From the NCBI GenBank assembly GCA_029260855.1, contig JAJDCK010000002.1:1-58132 (forward strand): a stretch of DNA of 58,132 nucleotides. The letters run 5' to 3'. The position numbers and the translations under genes were made by a program. Below the pieces are notes generated by a model that did not search any database, was not told the DNA's origin, and saw only the letters and a program-made list of their open reading frames with translations. Origin of the DNA: Candidatus Saccharimonadota bacterium. GTDB lineage: Bacteria > Patescibacteriota > Saccharimonadia > Saccharimonadales > OFTM59. Positions 37,775 through 43,632 of this stretch are shown piece after piece. How positions within the stretch are numbered: the stretch's first letter is position 1; every line of letters starts with the position of its first letter.

Positions 37775-38461
37775 TTAATTTATTAATTGCATTACAGCAG
37801 TGACGCAAGCAGTTTCGGCACGTAGGGTAAAATCGTGAAGGCTGAGTTGCGTGAGGTGGTGATCCTTGAACAGTTGCTTTTCTGAGTCAGACCAACCACC
37901 CTCTGGACCTATTAAAATACCGGCATTATCCATGTCCGTCCTTGTATTAGATTCGGTCTGCTCACACACAAGCAGAGGCACTCGTCCATCAAAATGCGTA
38001 ACTGCCGTTTCTACTTGCATGGGCTCACGAACCGCAGGTATGTCGCTGCGGCCACATTGTTCGGCAGCTTCTATCACAATTTTCTCTGCCCGTTCGAGGT
38101 TAAAGCCAGTCTTTTCGGAACGCTCCGCCAATAACGGCATAAAGTGGCTAGCTCCTAGCTCCGTACATTTTTGCAAAACCCAATCGTTTTTGTCTTTTTT
38201 GAGTAGCGACCATAACAAATAAATTTCTTTGCTCGGTACCTTGCGTTCAAAATCAGTAATTAGCTGCAAGTGTGCTTCACGTTCATTTATCTCAATTAAT
38301 TTGTATAGCCGATCATGTGTTGTGCCGTCAAATAACACAAGCTCTTGTCCGGGTGCCATGCGTAGAACCCGACGCCATTGATTAACTAGGCGAGCATCGT
38401 GCACCCAAAAATCATGCTTAAGCTCTATTTCGCTGCCTGTATAAAATCTATGAATTCGCAT
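37775..38461 (-). CDS. rsmE: 16S rRNA m3U1498 methyltransferase
   Basis: VLRM..G, LQKCTELG, EAAEQCGR..IP, IGPEGGW, LRAETA. Confidence 0.95.
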   Translation of the reverse strand: MRIHRFYTGSEIELKHDFWVHDARLVNQWRRVLRMAPGQELVLFDGTTHDRLYKLIEINEREAHLQLITDFERKVPSKEIYLLWSLLKKDKNDWVLQKCTELGASHFMPLLAERSEKTGFNLERAEKIVIEAAEQCGRSDIPAVREPMQVETAVTHFDGRVPLLVCEQTESNTRTDMDNAGILIGPEGGWSDSEKQLFKDHHLTQLSLHDFTLRAETACVTAVMQLIN

Positions 38462-40364
38462 GATGTGGTCGATACATCTTATTTGTGGTGGCCAATTTGT
38501 ATGACAAGTGCTTAGCGTTGTGCCTGGCCATTATGATAATAGTTCCTGAGGCTCCAAAGGCTCCTATAAACGAAGCGCCCGCCGCCATAGCAAAGGGCAC
38601 GTCCCTAACATCATGACCCGCCACTATACCCTCTTTCGCAGCAGCTAAGTAACTATTCACCAAACGATGGGCAGGATATGCGTCTTTGACTGCTTCAAAT
38701 TCTCGGATCGCTTTACTGAATCGGTTTTCTGAAAATAGCTGCAGGCCGTGCTCCCAACTGTTTTGTGTGGTACCACCTCGACCTAAAACAACATCGTTCT
38801 CGTGCGCCAAATCTTCTAAGTCCGCAATGTCGCGTATGTAGCTTTTTGCGGCATCGCTTGCTTCTTCGTTCTTGTAACGATATGTAAGTAACCCTAGCGC
38901 CTCTCCTGCTTCGTCAATTACAGGACCGCCGCTATTGCCCTGGGACGCATCAGCATCAGACTGAAACAGCCTATACCGACTACCAGCTGCCACACGTATC
39001 GCACTAATAGAGCCGTTTGTAGCCGTCACACTCAAGCTCTTGTTATCGGTCAGAATATTGTCTGCGTCACCCGGAAATCCGATAACGGTTATCTTCATGT
39101 TTTGTGTTACTTGGCCGTCGTATATCTTCAAATAGGGGGTGTTGTTGGCGTCTATCTTAATCAGCGCCACATCGCTAGTCGAGAAGCCTTCTTCGTTACC
39201 GGAGGCTAAGACAAAAAGGTCTTTTGGAGAATAGTCTATCCCTGTAAGGCTTGCCCGTTTCACCGTATCTGTATCTTTAAGGTGTAGCAAGTTTTTGACA
39301 TCTTGCTCTGAGTCAATAGCTAAAGCCCGCCCGCCAAGTGAAACAAGTAGCACGCTATGTTTGTTGTTTAACCTTATGGTGTTATTAGGGATATCGTACA
39401 AACCCGCAATAACAGCCGCCAAAAGCTCAGGCCTATCGCGCATAGCTGCCACCTGGTTTTCGCTTAACCCCATATATTTTAAGAAGTTACTAAGTGACAC
39501 CGGGTTGTTCAGCAACAAATCCACCAACACCTCCTCTGCCTCACGGGCTACAACATGACCGCTGGTCGCAATATAGCCCTCAGACGATACAAAAAACCCT
39601 GATCCAGCCGATGCATCACAACGCTCACCGCCTACTTCTTGATTATCAACAACAAGTGTCCCACAAGTAACACGATAAATTTTTACAACTGCTGGTGATA
39701 CCGAGTCAGCTACATAGCTTGCTGGCACAGTTTGTTTGGCAGCAAGCACACGTCCATTTGGTGCAAACGATAGCGTGTTTAATACGGCTTGAAAAGTTGC
39801 TGGCATCATATTTTTTGCTTGTAAGCCTTCTAGTTTCAGCGAAATCGGCATAGTCCTGTTTTGTCCGTCCCATTCAATTGAATAAACCTTGTAGTTTTTA
39901 TTGCCCAGCACAACAGATTGCTCATAGATATTCTTTCTAAAACCTACACCTGCAATTTGATCGTCAGAACTACTCAACAGAACTTTCCTTGGGGCTAAAT
40001 TGTTAGCTGACGCTTGGCTGGGTCGAGGTTGAATCGTGAGGCGTACGCTGGCCTGGGCTAAATCACTCGTCTGCCCCGGGCTAAGTTGCACATAATCTGC
40101 ACGACTCATGATACTAAGCCGGTTCGGGTCATACGCAAACGAAACCCAGTCCGACGAAAAAGGCGCCGTCGCAGCGTTAATTGTGCTTACTACTGATAAA
40201 ACCTCGTGTGTCTGCCCGGTTGGTAGCGTGCCAAGCGTTAACCCCAGAATTCCCACAAAAACCAACCAGGCTGCAATAACCAAAAGGCTAAGATGTCTGA
40301 CTAAATATGGTTTGTGATGATAGCGTGTCTTGAGGTTATTGGCCTGAGTTTTGTGCCCATCCAT
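38448..40364 (-). CDS. Membrane-anchored trypsin-like (S1) serine protease
   Basis: N-terminal TM, GSGFFVS...ATSGHVV (His), DVALIK (Asp), GNSGGP (Ser), TPR-like helices, C-terminal TM. Confidence 0.88.
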   Translation of the reverse strand: MDGHKTQANNLKTRYHHKPYLVRHLSLLVIAAWLVFVGILGLTLGTLPTGQTHEVLSVVSTINAATAPFSSDWVSFAYDPNRLSIMSRADYVQLSPGQTSDLAQASVRLTIQPRPSQASANNLAPRKVLLSSSDDQIAGVGFRKNIYEQSVVLGNKNYKVYSIEWDGQNRTMPISLKLEGLQAKNMMPATFQAVLNTLSFAPNGRVLAAKQTVPASYVADSVSPAVVKIYRVTCGTLVVDNQEVGGERCDASAGSGFFVSSEGYIATSGHVVAREAEEVLVDLLLNNPVSLSNFLKYMGLSENQVAAMRDRPELLAAVIAGLYDIPNNTIRLNNKHSVLLVSLGGRALAIDSEQDVKNLLHLKDTDTVKRASLTGIDYSPKDLFVLASGNEEGFSTSDVALIKIDANNTPYLKIYDGQVTQNMKITVIGFPGDADNILTDNKSLSVTATNGSISAIRVAAGSRYRLFQSDADASQGNSGGPVIDEAGEALGLLTYRYKNEEASDAAKSYIRDIADLEDLAHENDVVLGRGGTTQNSWEHGLQLFSENRFSKAIREFEAVKDAYPAHRLVNSYLAAAKEGIVAGHDVRDVPFAMAAGASFIGAFGASGTIIIMARHNAKHLSYKLATTNKMYRPHHANS

Positions 40365-40375
40365 ATCACTAGGAT

Positions 40376-41242
40376 TTAGGCGGCGAAACCAGCTATAGCA
40401 ATAGCAATAAATACAAACTGGGCTAACACTACAGTGACCACGTAGTTTCGTTCAACGAATTCATAATCATTTGATTGGCCGGTGCGCTTATTAGAGCGCC
40501 TGAGGTTAGACAAGACCAGCAAAAACCCTACCAGCAACGCTAAATCAAGCGCATAAACATACCAAGGGAAACGAATCATTCCGTAAAGCATTGTCCCAAA
40601 GAGTGAGACAAATATAGCGGACATTGCCGCCAAACCACTTACAAGCGACAGCCAGTAGTGTGCGGTTGTGCTTGTCCCTGCTTTTTGGTTCTGCCTTTCA
40701 CTTAACCAAGCAAAAACCATCGCTGACACCATAAATCCGCCAGCCATCTTAAGTGTAGCTATGTCCTCTACGCCGCTTACTATAGCAGCGATTTTAACCA
40801 TGATAGCCCCCGTAATCGCCAGCATCACCCATCGCCACAGATAAACGCGCCCAGCCTGAGCCCGCTCGTAACTAGCGCGCCAACGCGACAACACCAATGC
40901 GCTATATACTACACTAACAACAATCATTGATATAAGCAGCCATCTGACATCAAAATCAAGCAATATTTTTTCCGCAGGAACAAAAACAGTTTGAGATTCG
41001 CTTAAGAGCGCATCTTTTGTAACAAAGCTCAGCGAAAGAGCATAGTAAACCGGCTTAACCATTAGTAACACTATTGCAGCCAACACAGCCTGTAACACTA
41101 AGTTCGCCTTGTGCAAGATTCTAGTCTTCACAACAGTTGAGCTGTTTGCGGTTTTAGGGGTTACGTTTTTCTTGATTGTCTTGCTTGCTTTGGATTTTTT
41201 ACTCGCAGCGACTTTAGAAATAGTAGTCTTCTTTTTAACCAT
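40376..41242 (-). CDS. Heliorhodopsin-like 7-TM protein lacking the retinal-binding lysine
   Basis: Matches HeR motifs: Y.....G...WRWV, M....A..SG..DI..L, FAWLSE, W....G, P..VY, ERNYVVTVVLAQ (vs ERAYIVLSLVAK). Lys-rich cytoplasmic N-terminus. Confidence 0.8.
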   Translation of the reverse strand: MVKKKTTISKVAASKKSKASKTIKKNVTPKTANSSTVVKTRILHKANLVLQAVLAAIVLLMVKPVYYALSLSFVTKDALLSESQTVFVPAEKILLDFDVRWLLISMIVVSVVYSALVLSRWRASYERAQAGRVYLWRWVMLAITGAIMVKIAAIVSGVEDIATLKMAGGFMVSAMVFAWLSERQNQKAGTSTTAHYWLSLVSGLAAMSAIFVSLFGTMLYGMIRFPWYVYALDLALLVGFLLVLSNLRRSNKRTGQSNDYEFVERNYVVTVVLAQFVFIAIAIAGFAA

Positions 41243-41271
41243 AAAAAGACTATATCATGAATCTTCTAAGA

Positions 41272-41775
41272 TTAAATGTCTTTATACGGAATATGGCACA
41301 TTCCTTGGCCGGTTTTTTCGGTGTATTTTTGGTGGTATTCCTCGGCTTTATAAAAACGGACGGCCGGCACAATCTGAGTAACTATAGGTATTTTGGTTAG
41401 CGCTTGAAGCTCATCCTTAACCCTTTCTGCCACGAGCTTTTGTTCATCGTCAAAATAAAATATAGTTGACCTGTATTGATCACCTACGTCCGGGCCTTGG
41501 CGATTTAACTGCGTAGGGTCATGCATTCTAAAAAAGTGTCTGACCAAAACCTCATAGCTAACTGTTTCAGGGTCAAATTCAATCTCTAACACCTCTGCAT
41601 GACCTGTCGTATGGCCGCATACTTGTTCATAAGTTGGGTTTTCTACATGCCCGCCGGCGTAGCCTGCAGTTGTTTTAGCGACTCCGGGCACTTGGTCAAA
41701 ATAAAATTGTACCCCCCAGAAACATCCAGCTGCGAAAATCGCCCTACTCAGATAGCTACTCGCTAACTTTGACAT
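41272..41775 (-). CDS. msrA: Peptide methionine sulfoxide reductase A
   Basis: GCFWG, GYAGG, PTYEQVC, GHAE, HDPT..NRQG.D.G.QYRS, AEEYHQKY. Confidence 0.96.
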   Translation of the reverse strand: MSKLASSYLSRAIFAAGCFWGVQFYFDQVPGVAKTTAGYAGGHVENPTYEQVCGHTTGHAEVLEIEFDPETVSYEVLVRHFFRMHDPTQLNRQGPDVGDQYRSTIFYFDDEQKLVAERVKDELQALTKIPIVTQIVPAVRFYKAEEYHQKYTEKTGQGMCHIPYKDI

Positions 41776-42058
41776 CGCGCCAAAAAGCTACATAATCCGA
41801 AAAGTCTTTTTTGACTTTTTCTATAGCACCAGGGAGTGGAGCGGGATATGACCAGGCGTCATCCTGGCTTATATCATCGCCTCGCCCAACATTGAAGTAC
41901 TGGCAGACACCTTTCCAGGGACAAGTGTAGGGTGTGTCGCTTTTTTGTAATAAATCTTGGTTAACTGAACCTGGAGGAAAATACCAGTTGCCTTCAATAT
42001 AAATTAAATCTTCTTTTGGCGCCTCCGCTATAACTTTGTCGTTCCAGGTCGCTTTCAT
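41756..42058 (-). CDS. DUF427 domain protein
   Basis: EGNWYFPP, CPWKG...YF, AWSY. Confidence 0.88.
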   Translation of the reverse strand: MKATWNDKVIAEAPKEDLIYIEGNWYFPPGSVNQDLLQKSDTPYTCPWKGVCQYFNVGRGDDISQDDAWSYPAPLPGAIEKVKKDFSDYVAFWRDVKVSE

Positions 42059-42096: not shown

Positions 42097-43632
42097 CTAA
42101 ACTTCTAGCCGAAGTCGCTTGAGCAGCCATTCTCTAGGCAAAATACTCAAGAACCAACCGGCGCGCGGTCCAGAATCTTTTCCAATGATGGCCCGGTAAA
42201 GTATCGTGAAAAGCTCTTTTGGAGCCAATTCGGTGCTGTCTTTGAGTTCATAAACCACATTGTGGAACCAGCCCCCATCCGCGCCTTCAGGTGCTTGAGC
42301 TATTTTTTCAGCGAGTTGAAGCAAATATTGACGCTCTTTGTCATTGAATTCATTAATATTTAATTCTTCTTTTAAGTTGAATTTCACGTCTTCCGGCGCA
42401 CGCTTTTCCAGCCATGCATCAATAAATTCAAGCTCGTGTTTTATTACCTCTTCCTCCGAAACAGCTACATCCGCATATTCTGTACGCTTAATGACATCCA
42501 GGGTTTTATCAATATTTTTTAATGACGCCTGGTAGCTCGCCACAAGATGAGAGAATGGCACCCGTGATACACTGCGTCGCTCGTCATTGCCACGTGTGGC
42601 TAGATACCAAAGCTGTTGTTCTGATTCGCTCCTATCAGACTGAGCAGCAAATGCGGCAAACTCATCCATCAGCTGAACAACTCCGTTAACCGGGTCAAAA
42701 TATAATCTTTTAAGCGGTGGAGCTTTGAGGATAAAATAGCGAACTACCTCGGGCGGCATGATTTTTGACCCCTCTACTGCATCCAGGCCAGTTCCCTTGC
42801 TGGCGCTCATTTTCTTGGTGTCACCGACCATATTTATGAAATCATAGGAAACCGGATATGGTGGCTCTGCTTCATAGACATCCCGCACAATCTGAACACC
42901 AGTATCATAGGAGCTGCCTTTGGTCATATGATCGCGTCCAGAAGGCTCAACATGCACACTCTGAAGCCACCAACGGCCCGGCCAGTCCAGTCGCCAATCC
43001 AGCTTCACTTCACCGCGCGCATAACTTACAATTCGACTATCGCCTTTTACGTCTTCGTACTGAATAGTTTTCTGAGCCGTATCAATGCCGATAAATTTAC
43101 GTTTTTTCAGGCGCCCGTTTTCCAGTACTTGAATCGGTGACCAATTTTCATCCAGCTTGCGTCCGGCTACTGTTTCTAGTGAGTGGCGAGCACTATCAAT
43201 CCGCTCAAGTGAACGTTCAATCGCTGGCACGTAGAATCCTTCCCGATATTTTTTATGTGCACGGATATACTCAACTTCGATGCCTAGCGCCTTGCAGCCA
43301 TCAACCAGTGTTTGCAAAAAATAATCAGCATAGGATTGATCCGAGCCGTCCGGTGCCGGCACATCACATAACGGGTATCCTAAATACTTTTCAAACTCGG
43401 GTGGGACATTGACTGGTATTTTGCGTAAGCCATCAAAGTCATCAACAAAATAAATATGGCGGGCTTTTCGGCCCCTCCTCCTTAGTTCTAGCAATATCGC
43501 ATCAGCCGTCACCATCTCGCGCATGTGACCGATATGATAAGTGCCAGAGGGGGTGCCGCCGGATTCAATTAATATCTCGCCTTCCGGGTGACGAGCAATT
43601 ACATCATCAGCTATCTGGTTAATCCACTGCAT
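42097..43632 (-). CDS. lysS: Lysine--tRNA ligase, class I
   Basis: HIGH motif (PSGTYHIGH), KLDWRLDWP.RW, KMSASKG, DSGPRAG. Confidence 0.95.
   Translation of the reverse strand: MQWINQIADDVIARHPEGEILIESGGTPSGTYHIGHMREMVTADAILLELRRRGRKARHIYFVDDFDGLRKIPVNVPPEFEKYLGYPLCDVPAPDGSDQSYADYFLQTLVDGCKALGIEVEYIRAHKKYREGFYVPAIERSLERIDSARHSLETVAGRKLDENWSPIQVLENGRLKKRKFIGIDTAQKTIQYEDVKGDSRIVSYARGEVKLDWRLDWPGRWWLQSVHVEPSGRDHMTKGSSYDTGVQIVRDVYEAEPPYPVSYDFINMVGDTKKMSASKGTGLDAVEGSKIMPPEVVRYFILKAPPLKRLYFDPVNGVVQLMDEFAAFAAQSDRSESEQQLWYLATRGNDERRSVSRVPFSHLVASYQASLKNIDKTLDVIKRTEYADVAVSEEEVIKHELEFIDAWLEKRAPEDVKFNLKEELNINEFNDKERQYLLQLAEKIAQAPEGADGGWFHNVVYELKDSTELAPKELFTILYRAIIGKDSGPRAGWFLSILPREWLLKRLRLEV

Follow-up and report, generated by a model that had tools for sequence, protein, structure and literature searches.

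Since heliorhodopsins (HeRs) were discovered in 2018, what they do in the cell has been unclear, and the roles that have to our knowledge been proposed for them (regulation of glutamine synthetase or photolyase as partners, or oxidative-stress signalling) all take light as their input. What, then, keeps a HeR gene in a genome once its product has lost the residues that hold retinal? The question is raised by a gene lying in a 58,132-nucleotide stretch of DNA (contig JAJDCK010000002.1 of assembly GCA_029260855.1, positions 1 to 58,132; hereafter the window) from a Candidatus Saccharimonadota bacterium, which belongs to the candidate phyla radiation (CPR) and whose genome assembly of 790 kb is distributed over 18 contigs and is 97.7% complete.

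40376..41242, minus strand: lysine-less HeR-family gene encoding 288 amino acids (aa), with a seven-transmembrane (7TM) core and a polybasic N-terminal tail (open reading frame (ORF), PF18761, AlphaFold2, Foldseek).

Our analysis shows that the product of this gene truly belongs to the heliorhodopsin family but is without the features that define a retinal pigment. We consider it likely that this product is a retinal-free HeR scaffold, maintained by selection and working through its conserved cytoplasmic face and tail.

The PF18761 profile matches the window protein with 72.8 bits (E 3.6e-20), far above the curated cut-off of 26.7 bits, and covers positions 10-230 of the 242 in the profile. 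Heliorhodopsins were the sole matches in a phmmer search against PDB sequences, with 48C12 at E 1e-8, and the solved HeR structures share about 17% identity with the window protein. Its score of 67.6 against the NCBIfam NF038020 'HeR' equivalog is under the cut-off of 100, and its Saccharibacteria relatives are named just 'hypothetical protein' in public records. The AlphaFold2 model, calculated from an alignment of 122 sequences, has a predicted local distance difference test (pLDDT) score of 92.8 and a predicted template modelling (pTM) score of 0.86, and contains seven helices and the HeR-specific AB beta-hairpin (strands 66-76 and 87-98). When this predicted structure was compared with the PDB using Foldseek, the top 10 matches were HeRs throughout, including TaHeR (6is6; E 1.7e-11, template modelling score (TM-score) 0.79/0.91, root-mean-square deviation 1.8 Å), and type-1 rhodopsins trailed at E > 1e-3. 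Both the alignments and the model used the database proxy P0001, whose sole difference from the window protein is F286L. The window protein thus has the sequence family, the 7TM fold and the AB beta-hairpin of the canonical HeRs HeR-48C12 (6su3, 6uh3) and TaHeR, and the proposal of an earlier first-pass annotation that HeR architecture is retained is borne out by the 72.8-bit profile match and the TaHeR TM-score of 0.91.

Two codons specify the key departures from the canonical residues.

40418..40420, minus strand: codon CAG for Gln275, aligned with the Schiff-base Lys241 of 48C12 (codon reading, phmmer, MAFFT).
40823..40825, minus strand: codon ATG for Met140, aligned with the counterion Glu107 (codon reading, phmmer, MAFFT).

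The phmmer alignment pairs ERNYVVTVVLAQ with ERAYIVLSLVAK of 48C12, which sets Gln275 on Lys241, each of them 11 residues past the Glu of ER, and pairs RWVM with RWVE, which sets Met140 on Glu107. Both assignments had been made in the first-pass annotation, and they were unchanged in a 256-sequence MAFFT alignment anchored on 48C12. The latter alignment also places Val271 at Ser237, Gln51 at His23 and Ser114 at His80. The SxxxK motif of helix G is accordingly missing, its K241 and S237 sites being occupied by Gln275 and Val271, and inspection of the sequence of TM7 revealed no lysine. Equivalents of His23 and His80 are absent as annotated, but this is no special property of the protein, since the loss is common to the whole divergent subfamily to which it belongs, lysine-bearing members included. 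The window protein and the canonical HeRs share the equivalents of R104, W105, D127, E149, Y92, Y226 and E230; in contrast to them, the window protein is without the Schiff-base Lys, Glu107, Ser237, His23 and His80, has Leu for Gln213 and Tyr for Asn101, and carries in addition a 41-residue polybasic N-terminal tail. Judged from its sequence, covalent retinal binding by known chemistry is excluded for this protein.

Could the Schiff base simply have moved? The first-pass annotation had listed Lys150, Lys165 and Asp233 as new charges, and had named Lys150 as a remote candidate for a relocated attachment site. All three residues are present, but Lys165 is no novelty, being near-invariant in the divergent subfamily (145/165). 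A new type of pigment built on Lys150 in helix C, or on Lys165, would gain from the location of the former within a transmembrane helix adjoining the pocket helices and from the invariance of the latter in the clade of the window protein. However, position 150, the equivalent of Val117 of 48C12, is K in only about half of this lysine-less clade and S, E or G in the remainder. Its usual residue in the subfamily is Glu, including in the lysine-bearing members, and it is this Glu that Lys150 of the window protein replaces. Lys165 is equally invariant in lysine-bearing members, and its 48C12 counterpart, Leu132, lies at the extracellular dimer interface, far from C15 of retinal. We therefore give hardly any credence to a relocated Schiff base. 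Asp233 is confined to the nearest relatives (P0001-P0005, P0007 and P0008) and six of the sequences P0001-P0008, the eight closest ones, combine it with Lys150, a co-occurrence that would fit a local ion pair.

The loss of the lysine is shared by an entire clade. An exhaustive HMMER search returned 457 clusters (50% identity) at E <= 1e-3, 232 of which were found at E <= 1e-10. In a tree of 161 clusters, rooted on the canonical HeR of the same genome, the window protein lies in a clade of 16 clusters of which none has the lysine (14 have Q, one T and one I), with a support of 94 in the Shimodaira-Hasegawa-like approximate likelihood ratio test (SH-aLRT). The sister sequence has Arg. A genome-based tree agrees on this clade (support 96-99), which reaches down to about 36% identity with ORFs intact throughout. 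In the 256-sequence alignment, the Schiff-base site is Q in 15 of the 17 members of the clade and I and T in the other two, the counterion site is Y, I, F or M and never an acidic residue, and the Ser237 site is Ala or Val. Fixed changes specific to the clade are Gln213 to Leu (17/17), Asn101 to Tyr or Trp, Gln216 to Ser and Phe79 to Tyr. The divergent subfamily as a whole makes up 151 of the 161 clusters (support 100); most of its members (104) keep the Lys and an acidic counterion residue (Asp or Glu), and similar N-terminal tails are found across all of it. On the full 161-row tree, which includes basal rows outside the divergent subfamily, parsimony gives 22 changes for the lysine losses, and at least nine are forced by well-supported branches. 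PF18761 was found in 98 of 121 genomes of the same order, and the Schiff-base site of 60 divergent copies is K in 38 and another residue in 22 (R in six, V in five, L in four, Q in four, T in two and Y in one).

The lysine-less proteins evolve under constraint. Among eight members of the window clade, the approximate dN/dS is 0.06-0.12 wherever dS is unsaturated (dN 0.127 and dS 1.10 between the window gene and P0002, dN 0.188 and dS 1.96 between the window gene and P0003), and the HeR-like gene and its protease, RsmE and lysyl-tRNA synthetase (LysRS) neighbours have comparable dN. The constraint has a distinct distribution. The entropy of 18 retinal-pocket and Schiff-base sites, expressed as a ratio to the core mean, is 0.24 in canonical HeRs and 0.98 in the window clade, compared with 0.20 for eight sites of a cytoplasmic cluster in the same clade. 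This polar cluster on the cytoplasmic side is invariant and comprises Arg137 (R104), Tyr125 (Y92), Glu264 (E230), Glu182 (E149) and Tyr260 (Y226); Trp138 (W105), the dimer-interface Asp160 (D127) and the polybasic, presumably cytoplasmic tail are also invariant. R104, W105, G124, D127, E149, Y196 and E230 (48C12 numbering) are at least 85% conserved in each of three groups, the canonical HeRs, the lysine-bearing divergent proteins and the lysine-less ones. A decaying, functionless heliorhodopsin relic could have lost its photochemical residues and slipped under the NF038020 cut-off in just this way, but it would hardly be expected to show ORFs intact to about 36% identity, a dN/dS of about 0.1, a conserved promoter (see below) and a confident fold prediction, and we regard a relic as extremely improbable.

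Since a HeR relative is kept under strong selection without its retinal-attachment residues, the fold probably also has a light-independent job. The first-pass annotation had suggested a retinal-free scaffold repurposed as a non-photic sensor or protease partner; the scaffold gains from the dN/dS values and from the entirely lysine-less clade of 16-17 clusters, whereas the protease partner is weakened by the scarcity of the protease gene at orthologous loci (6/60). In the model that we favour, the window gene is the local orthologue of an old, tail-bearing Saccharimonadales HeR lineage in a conserved chromosomal position. The window clade has lost the whole Schiff-base apparatus (Lys241 to Gln, Glu107 to Met, Tyr, Ile or Phe, and Ser237 to Ala or Val), and His23 and His80 would have disappeared earlier in the lineage. 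The resulting light-blind and probably dimeric 7TM scaffold, presumably free of any chromophore, would present its cytoplasmic face and tail to a partner, the membrane or the nucleoid, and would act constitutively or under a non-photic cue. It would be translated from a leaderless mRNA made from the gene's own extended -10 promoter, probably co-transcribed with the downstream protease and RsmE genes. The fact that a vertically inherited HeR lineage has repeatedly shed its retinal-binding residues, with the protein, the cytoplasmic cluster and the promoter under selection, argues for a use of the fold in the dark. Lysine-less HeRs could serve as natural 'blind' controls in the search for HeR partners and activities, and they add to the picture of CPR genomes of about 0.8 Mb reusing membrane proteins.

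It is possible, and we advance it tentatively, that light independence extends to the entire tail-bearing Saccharimonadales HeR lineage, lysine-bearing members too. Without light, these proteins would carry out their core function by way of the invariant R104/Y92/E230/E149 cluster on the cytoplasmic side, the dimer and the polybasic tail. That function would be linked to MsrA and the oxidative-damage response, and the Lys-Asp couple would mainly be a buried structural ion pair. We keep this wider reading open because Arg is the commonest replacement of the lysine and because the pocket sites are unconstrained even in the lysine-bearing clades of the tail-bearing subfamily, where they are no more conserved than the core (ratio 0.92-0.94). 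In raw counts, an acidic counterion is found in 69% of sequences with Lys, 91% of those with Arg and 21% of those with a neutral residue at the Schiff-base site (Fisher p = 8e-9). A structural Lys-Asp pair would explain both the frequent Arg with the acid kept and the tendency of neutral replacements to lose it. If the whole lineage is light-free, these natural retinal-free HeRs would provide a direct handle on the long-unknown function of HeRs.

Several observations weigh against the retinal-free scaffold as we picture it for the window clade. The coupling between Lys and counterion, once reduced to phylogenetically independent pairs, comes down to about 4 versus 0 (p = 0.125), which is not significant in what is an underpowered comparison. 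dS is saturated in most pairs, which makes the dN/dS values rough. The conserved equivalent of D127 is the single observation behind the putative dimer. Finally, the summed side-chain volume of the 18 pocket sites is 2621 Å3, virtually identical to the 2622 Å3 of canonical HeRs. The polar lining of the Schiff-base cavity is bulkier (1555 versus 1461 Å3, about 95 Å3 more), but we do not claim steric filling or a collapsed pocket, given that the crude sum of side-chain volumes is unchanged.

The unchanged volume would allow a hydrophobic cavity for a non-covalent ligand, and the former retinal pocket might bind retinal, a carotenoid, or a lipid or quinone taken from the host, making the protein a pigment or a ligand sensor. 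The pocket is now nearly all hydrophobic (MSWMLTGAMMAMMFLLVQ), no clade member has lost W138 (W105), and F240 (F206) is retained by the window protein and 9 of the 17 members. A carotenoid site has been proposed in the literature for most HeRs, and exogenous retinal is reported to enter HeRs via a lateral opening. On the other hand, the pocket sites of the clade are no more conserved than the core, as seen above, in contrast to those of canonical HeRs; the W173 site is W or M, the Q213 site is Leu in all members, and the counterion and polar anchor are missing. The source genome is also without a carotenoid pathway: a search for phytoene synthase (PF00494) found none in it, with control genomes positive. 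Searches with PF01036 and PF15461 (type-1 rhodopsin and blh) gave no match and were silent in the controls too, and are therefore uninformative. On balance, we find a pocket ligand unlikely. As a separate observation, Met occupies six of the 18 former pocket sites of the window protein (M106, M140, M148, M171, M175 and M207) and four to five of them in its five closest relatives (P0002-P0006), compared with a mean of 1.0 in the lysine-bearing subfamily; the rest of the lysine-less clade is without this feature. An enrichment in Met linked to the neighbouring msrA gene was considered and rejected, as the Met content of the core is not raised (0.031 in the clade versus 0.034 in canonical HeRs).

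The lysine-less protein is not the only HeR of this bacterium, which has a second, canonical copy on another contig.

L001:1495-2286, minus strand (= G000:C6:10019-10744): canonical HeR (PF18761 and 48C12 alignment).

This 48C12-like protein scores 305 bits, can be aligned to 48C12 without a gap (E 7e-105) and has retained His23, His80, Glu107, Ser237 and Lys241. A glyoxalase-family gene (L001:1025-1441) lies directly downstream of it, and a glyoxalase-type neighbour has previously been noted for HeRs in the literature. In seven other genomes, a canonical HeR with the full set of His23, His80, Glu107, Ser237 and Lys241 (HHESK type) fills the same chromosomal slot as the window gene. A combined tree unites these slot-type canonical HeRs and all the divergent genes in one clade (support 100), and leaves the 48C12-like group, including the contig-C6 copy, outside it, beside actinobacterial 48C12. 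We infer from this that the Saccharimonadales inherited the slot gene vertically as their ancestral HeR, and that it has since diverged, losing His23, then His80 and then, repeatedly, the lysine. The 48C12-like copy would represent a separate lineage, and its grouping with actinobacterial 48C12 is a hint that it may have been acquired horizontally.

The presence of two HeRs in one genome brings up a heterodimer, in which the lysine-less protein would modulate the canonical one. The dimer-interface Asp is conserved, and a similar hypothesis has been put forward for Rh-noK, lysine-less type-1 rhodopsins beside proton pumps. However, the two HeR genes sit on different contigs, 19 of the 23 genomes with a lysine-less slot gene carry no other HeR, and two members of the window's own clade (G002 and G057) are without a canonical copy. 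Consistently, we found no association between lysine loss and presence of a canonical HeR copy (Fisher p = 1.0), and we judge heterodimer formation highly improbable.

Rhodopsin-fold proteins without the lysine have precedents outside the HeR family. Lysine-less type-1 relatives include the haloarchaeal opsin-related proteins (Becker 2016), the betaproteobacterial Rh-noK and the freshwater flotillin-associated rhodopsins (PMC10308929). They show the same pattern, that of a paralogue or orthologue with Gln, Thr, Leu or Arg at the lysine site that selection retains, often in genomes that also have a working rhodopsin, but belong to a different family (type 1) with an N-out topology. Rh-noK genes lie in tandem with a pump, whereas the window gene adjoins no other rhodopsin, and it also lacks the flotillin neighbour of the flotillin-associated rhodopsins. 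Within the HeR family, 98 HeRs have been described in 86 of 1326 CPR genomes, mostly Saccharimonadia, and assigned to new clades (Chiriac et al. 2022; PMC9166423). These come from the same organisms and the same gene family as the window gene, but that study checked the SxxxK motif and the motifs that it reports are all lysine-bearing (SLVAK, SLIAK and SFVAK). Other HeR studies call the lysine universal or filter out sequences without it, and a 2026 survey contains two uncharacterized rhodopsin-like cluster representatives without the lysine that were not identified as HeRs. Our literature search found no published description of lysine-less HeRs, which seem to have been filtered from published data sets rather than described.

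How the scaffold is expressed, and what its extra N-terminal segment might contribute, can be approached from the 5' end of the gene.

41249..41257, minus strand: extended -10-like element TGATATAGT, 6 nt before the ATG, candidate leaderless-mRNA promoter (comparison with relatives).
41120..41242, minus strand: N-terminal, presumably cytoplasmic tail, residues 1-41, with 13 K/R and no D/E, predicted to be disordered (composition, AlphaFold2).

The pattern TGnTAnnnT is found at the same 6-nt spacing in all eight clade loci compared, despite diverged flanks; in the order-wide set (L041-L100), 42 of 60 loci have it 5-7 nt ahead of an in-frame ATG that opens MA(T/K)(T/K)KK.... A simple sigma-70 consensus scan called no promoter on the strand of the gene, and its silence is explained by the missing -35 element. 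The own leaderless promoter of the first-pass annotation thus finds comparative support in close relatives and order-wide loci alike, and the transcript of the HeR-like gene is apparently leaderless throughout the order. Residues 1-34 of the encoded tail have pLDDT values of 57-68 and no secondary structure in the AlphaFold2 model. The charge pattern, as read from the sequence, would fit an N-in topology, with the 13 K/R of the tail unaccompanied by D/E and with Arg/Lys-rich BC and FG loops.

The window gene is embedded in a series of genes on the same strand.

37775..38461, minus strand: RsmE-type RNA methyltransferase gene (PF04452 and PF20260).
38448..40364, minus strand: membrane-anchored trypsin-like serine protease gene, 638 aa, 11 nt past the HeR-like stop codon (PF13365 Trypsin_2, 69.3 bits).
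41272..41775, minus strand: msrA, peptide methionine sulfoxide reductase gene, upstream of the HeR-like gene (PF01625, 215 bits).
41756..42058, minus strand: DUF427 gene (PF04248).
42097..43632, minus strand: class I LysRS gene (PF01921).

The gene spacing is as annotated, with 11 nt between the HeR-like gene and the start of the protease gene at 40364 and with msrA on the upstream side, where 29 nt separate its stop (41272) from the HeR-like start codon. The start of RsmE overlaps the protease stop by 14 nt (38448-38461). This overlap, together with the 11-nt gap, suggests that the HeR-like, protease and RsmE genes probably form one transcription unit. The protease has the motifs SGHV at 268, DVALIK at 398 and GNSGGP at 476 and hydrophobic segments at 19-37 and 593-611, and is plausibly an active enzyme; its matches to HtrA/DegS-like NCBIfam models fall under their cut-offs.

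We sampled 60 orthologous loci from 60 species-representative genomes in many families of the order, with fetched flanks of up to 4 kb. The order of the slot is LysRS-DUF427-msrA, then the HeR gene, then (TRAM methyltransferase)-(protease)-RsmE-PDDEXK. On the upstream side, msrA is present in 42 of the 60 loci on either strand, and LysRS (20/60) and DUF427 (17/60) lie further out; on the downstream side, a PDDEXK nuclease gene is present in 47, RsmE in 38 and a TRAM/tRNA-U5 methyltransferase gene in 31. The slot and its msrA are thus conserved, msrA being the most persistent neighbour, but the adjacency of the protease is not, since it was found within 4 kb in just 6 of the 60 loci.

These counts bear on the possibility that the HeR-like protein is dedicated to the membrane serine protease encoded downstream, as its partner or regulator. 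Down to 50% identity, all relatives with a contig long enough on the downstream side have the protease adjacent, with a gap of 11-12 nt in the window and three close relatives and of 164-177 nt in two more, and both proteins would expose domains outside the membrane. Two other, distant lysine-less orthologues, from G098 (L081) and G040 (L084), have Leu at the lysine site and a trypsin-like protease, 39% identical to that of the window, encoded 47-62 nt downstream. Beyond its rarity in the order-wide sample, however, the protease is separated from the HeR-like gene by a tRNA methyltransferase gene in a 47%-identical lysine-less orthologue. The directly adjacent cases order-wide number three, all of them lysine-less, and correspond to two independent events, which makes them a lead rather than evidence. 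Moreover, the block is a housekeeping one in which the protease is a variable member, so that adjacency can arise via loss of an intervening gene. We accordingly think a dedicated protease partnership improbable.

The msrA gene at the slot occurs in two forms, one on the same strand as the HeR gene and 60-77% identical to the MsrA of the window, the other on the opposite strand and 42-52% identical. Both are present within the window's own family, so the gene has changed type without losing its place beside the HeR gene. The upstream synthetase likewise varies, being a class I LysRS (PF01921) in the window and its close relatives and a class II-type enzyme (PF00152, with an OB anticodon domain) at the corresponding place in more distant ones, as a comparison with L006:2468-4438 and L010:1-1462 showed. 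Lastly, the identities of neighbouring genes are mosaic. The P0004 contig is 94% identical to the window in RsmE and 70% in the HeR-like gene, and the P0006 contig 85% in LysRS and 58% in the HeR-like gene, which suggests recombination among related Saccharibacteria.

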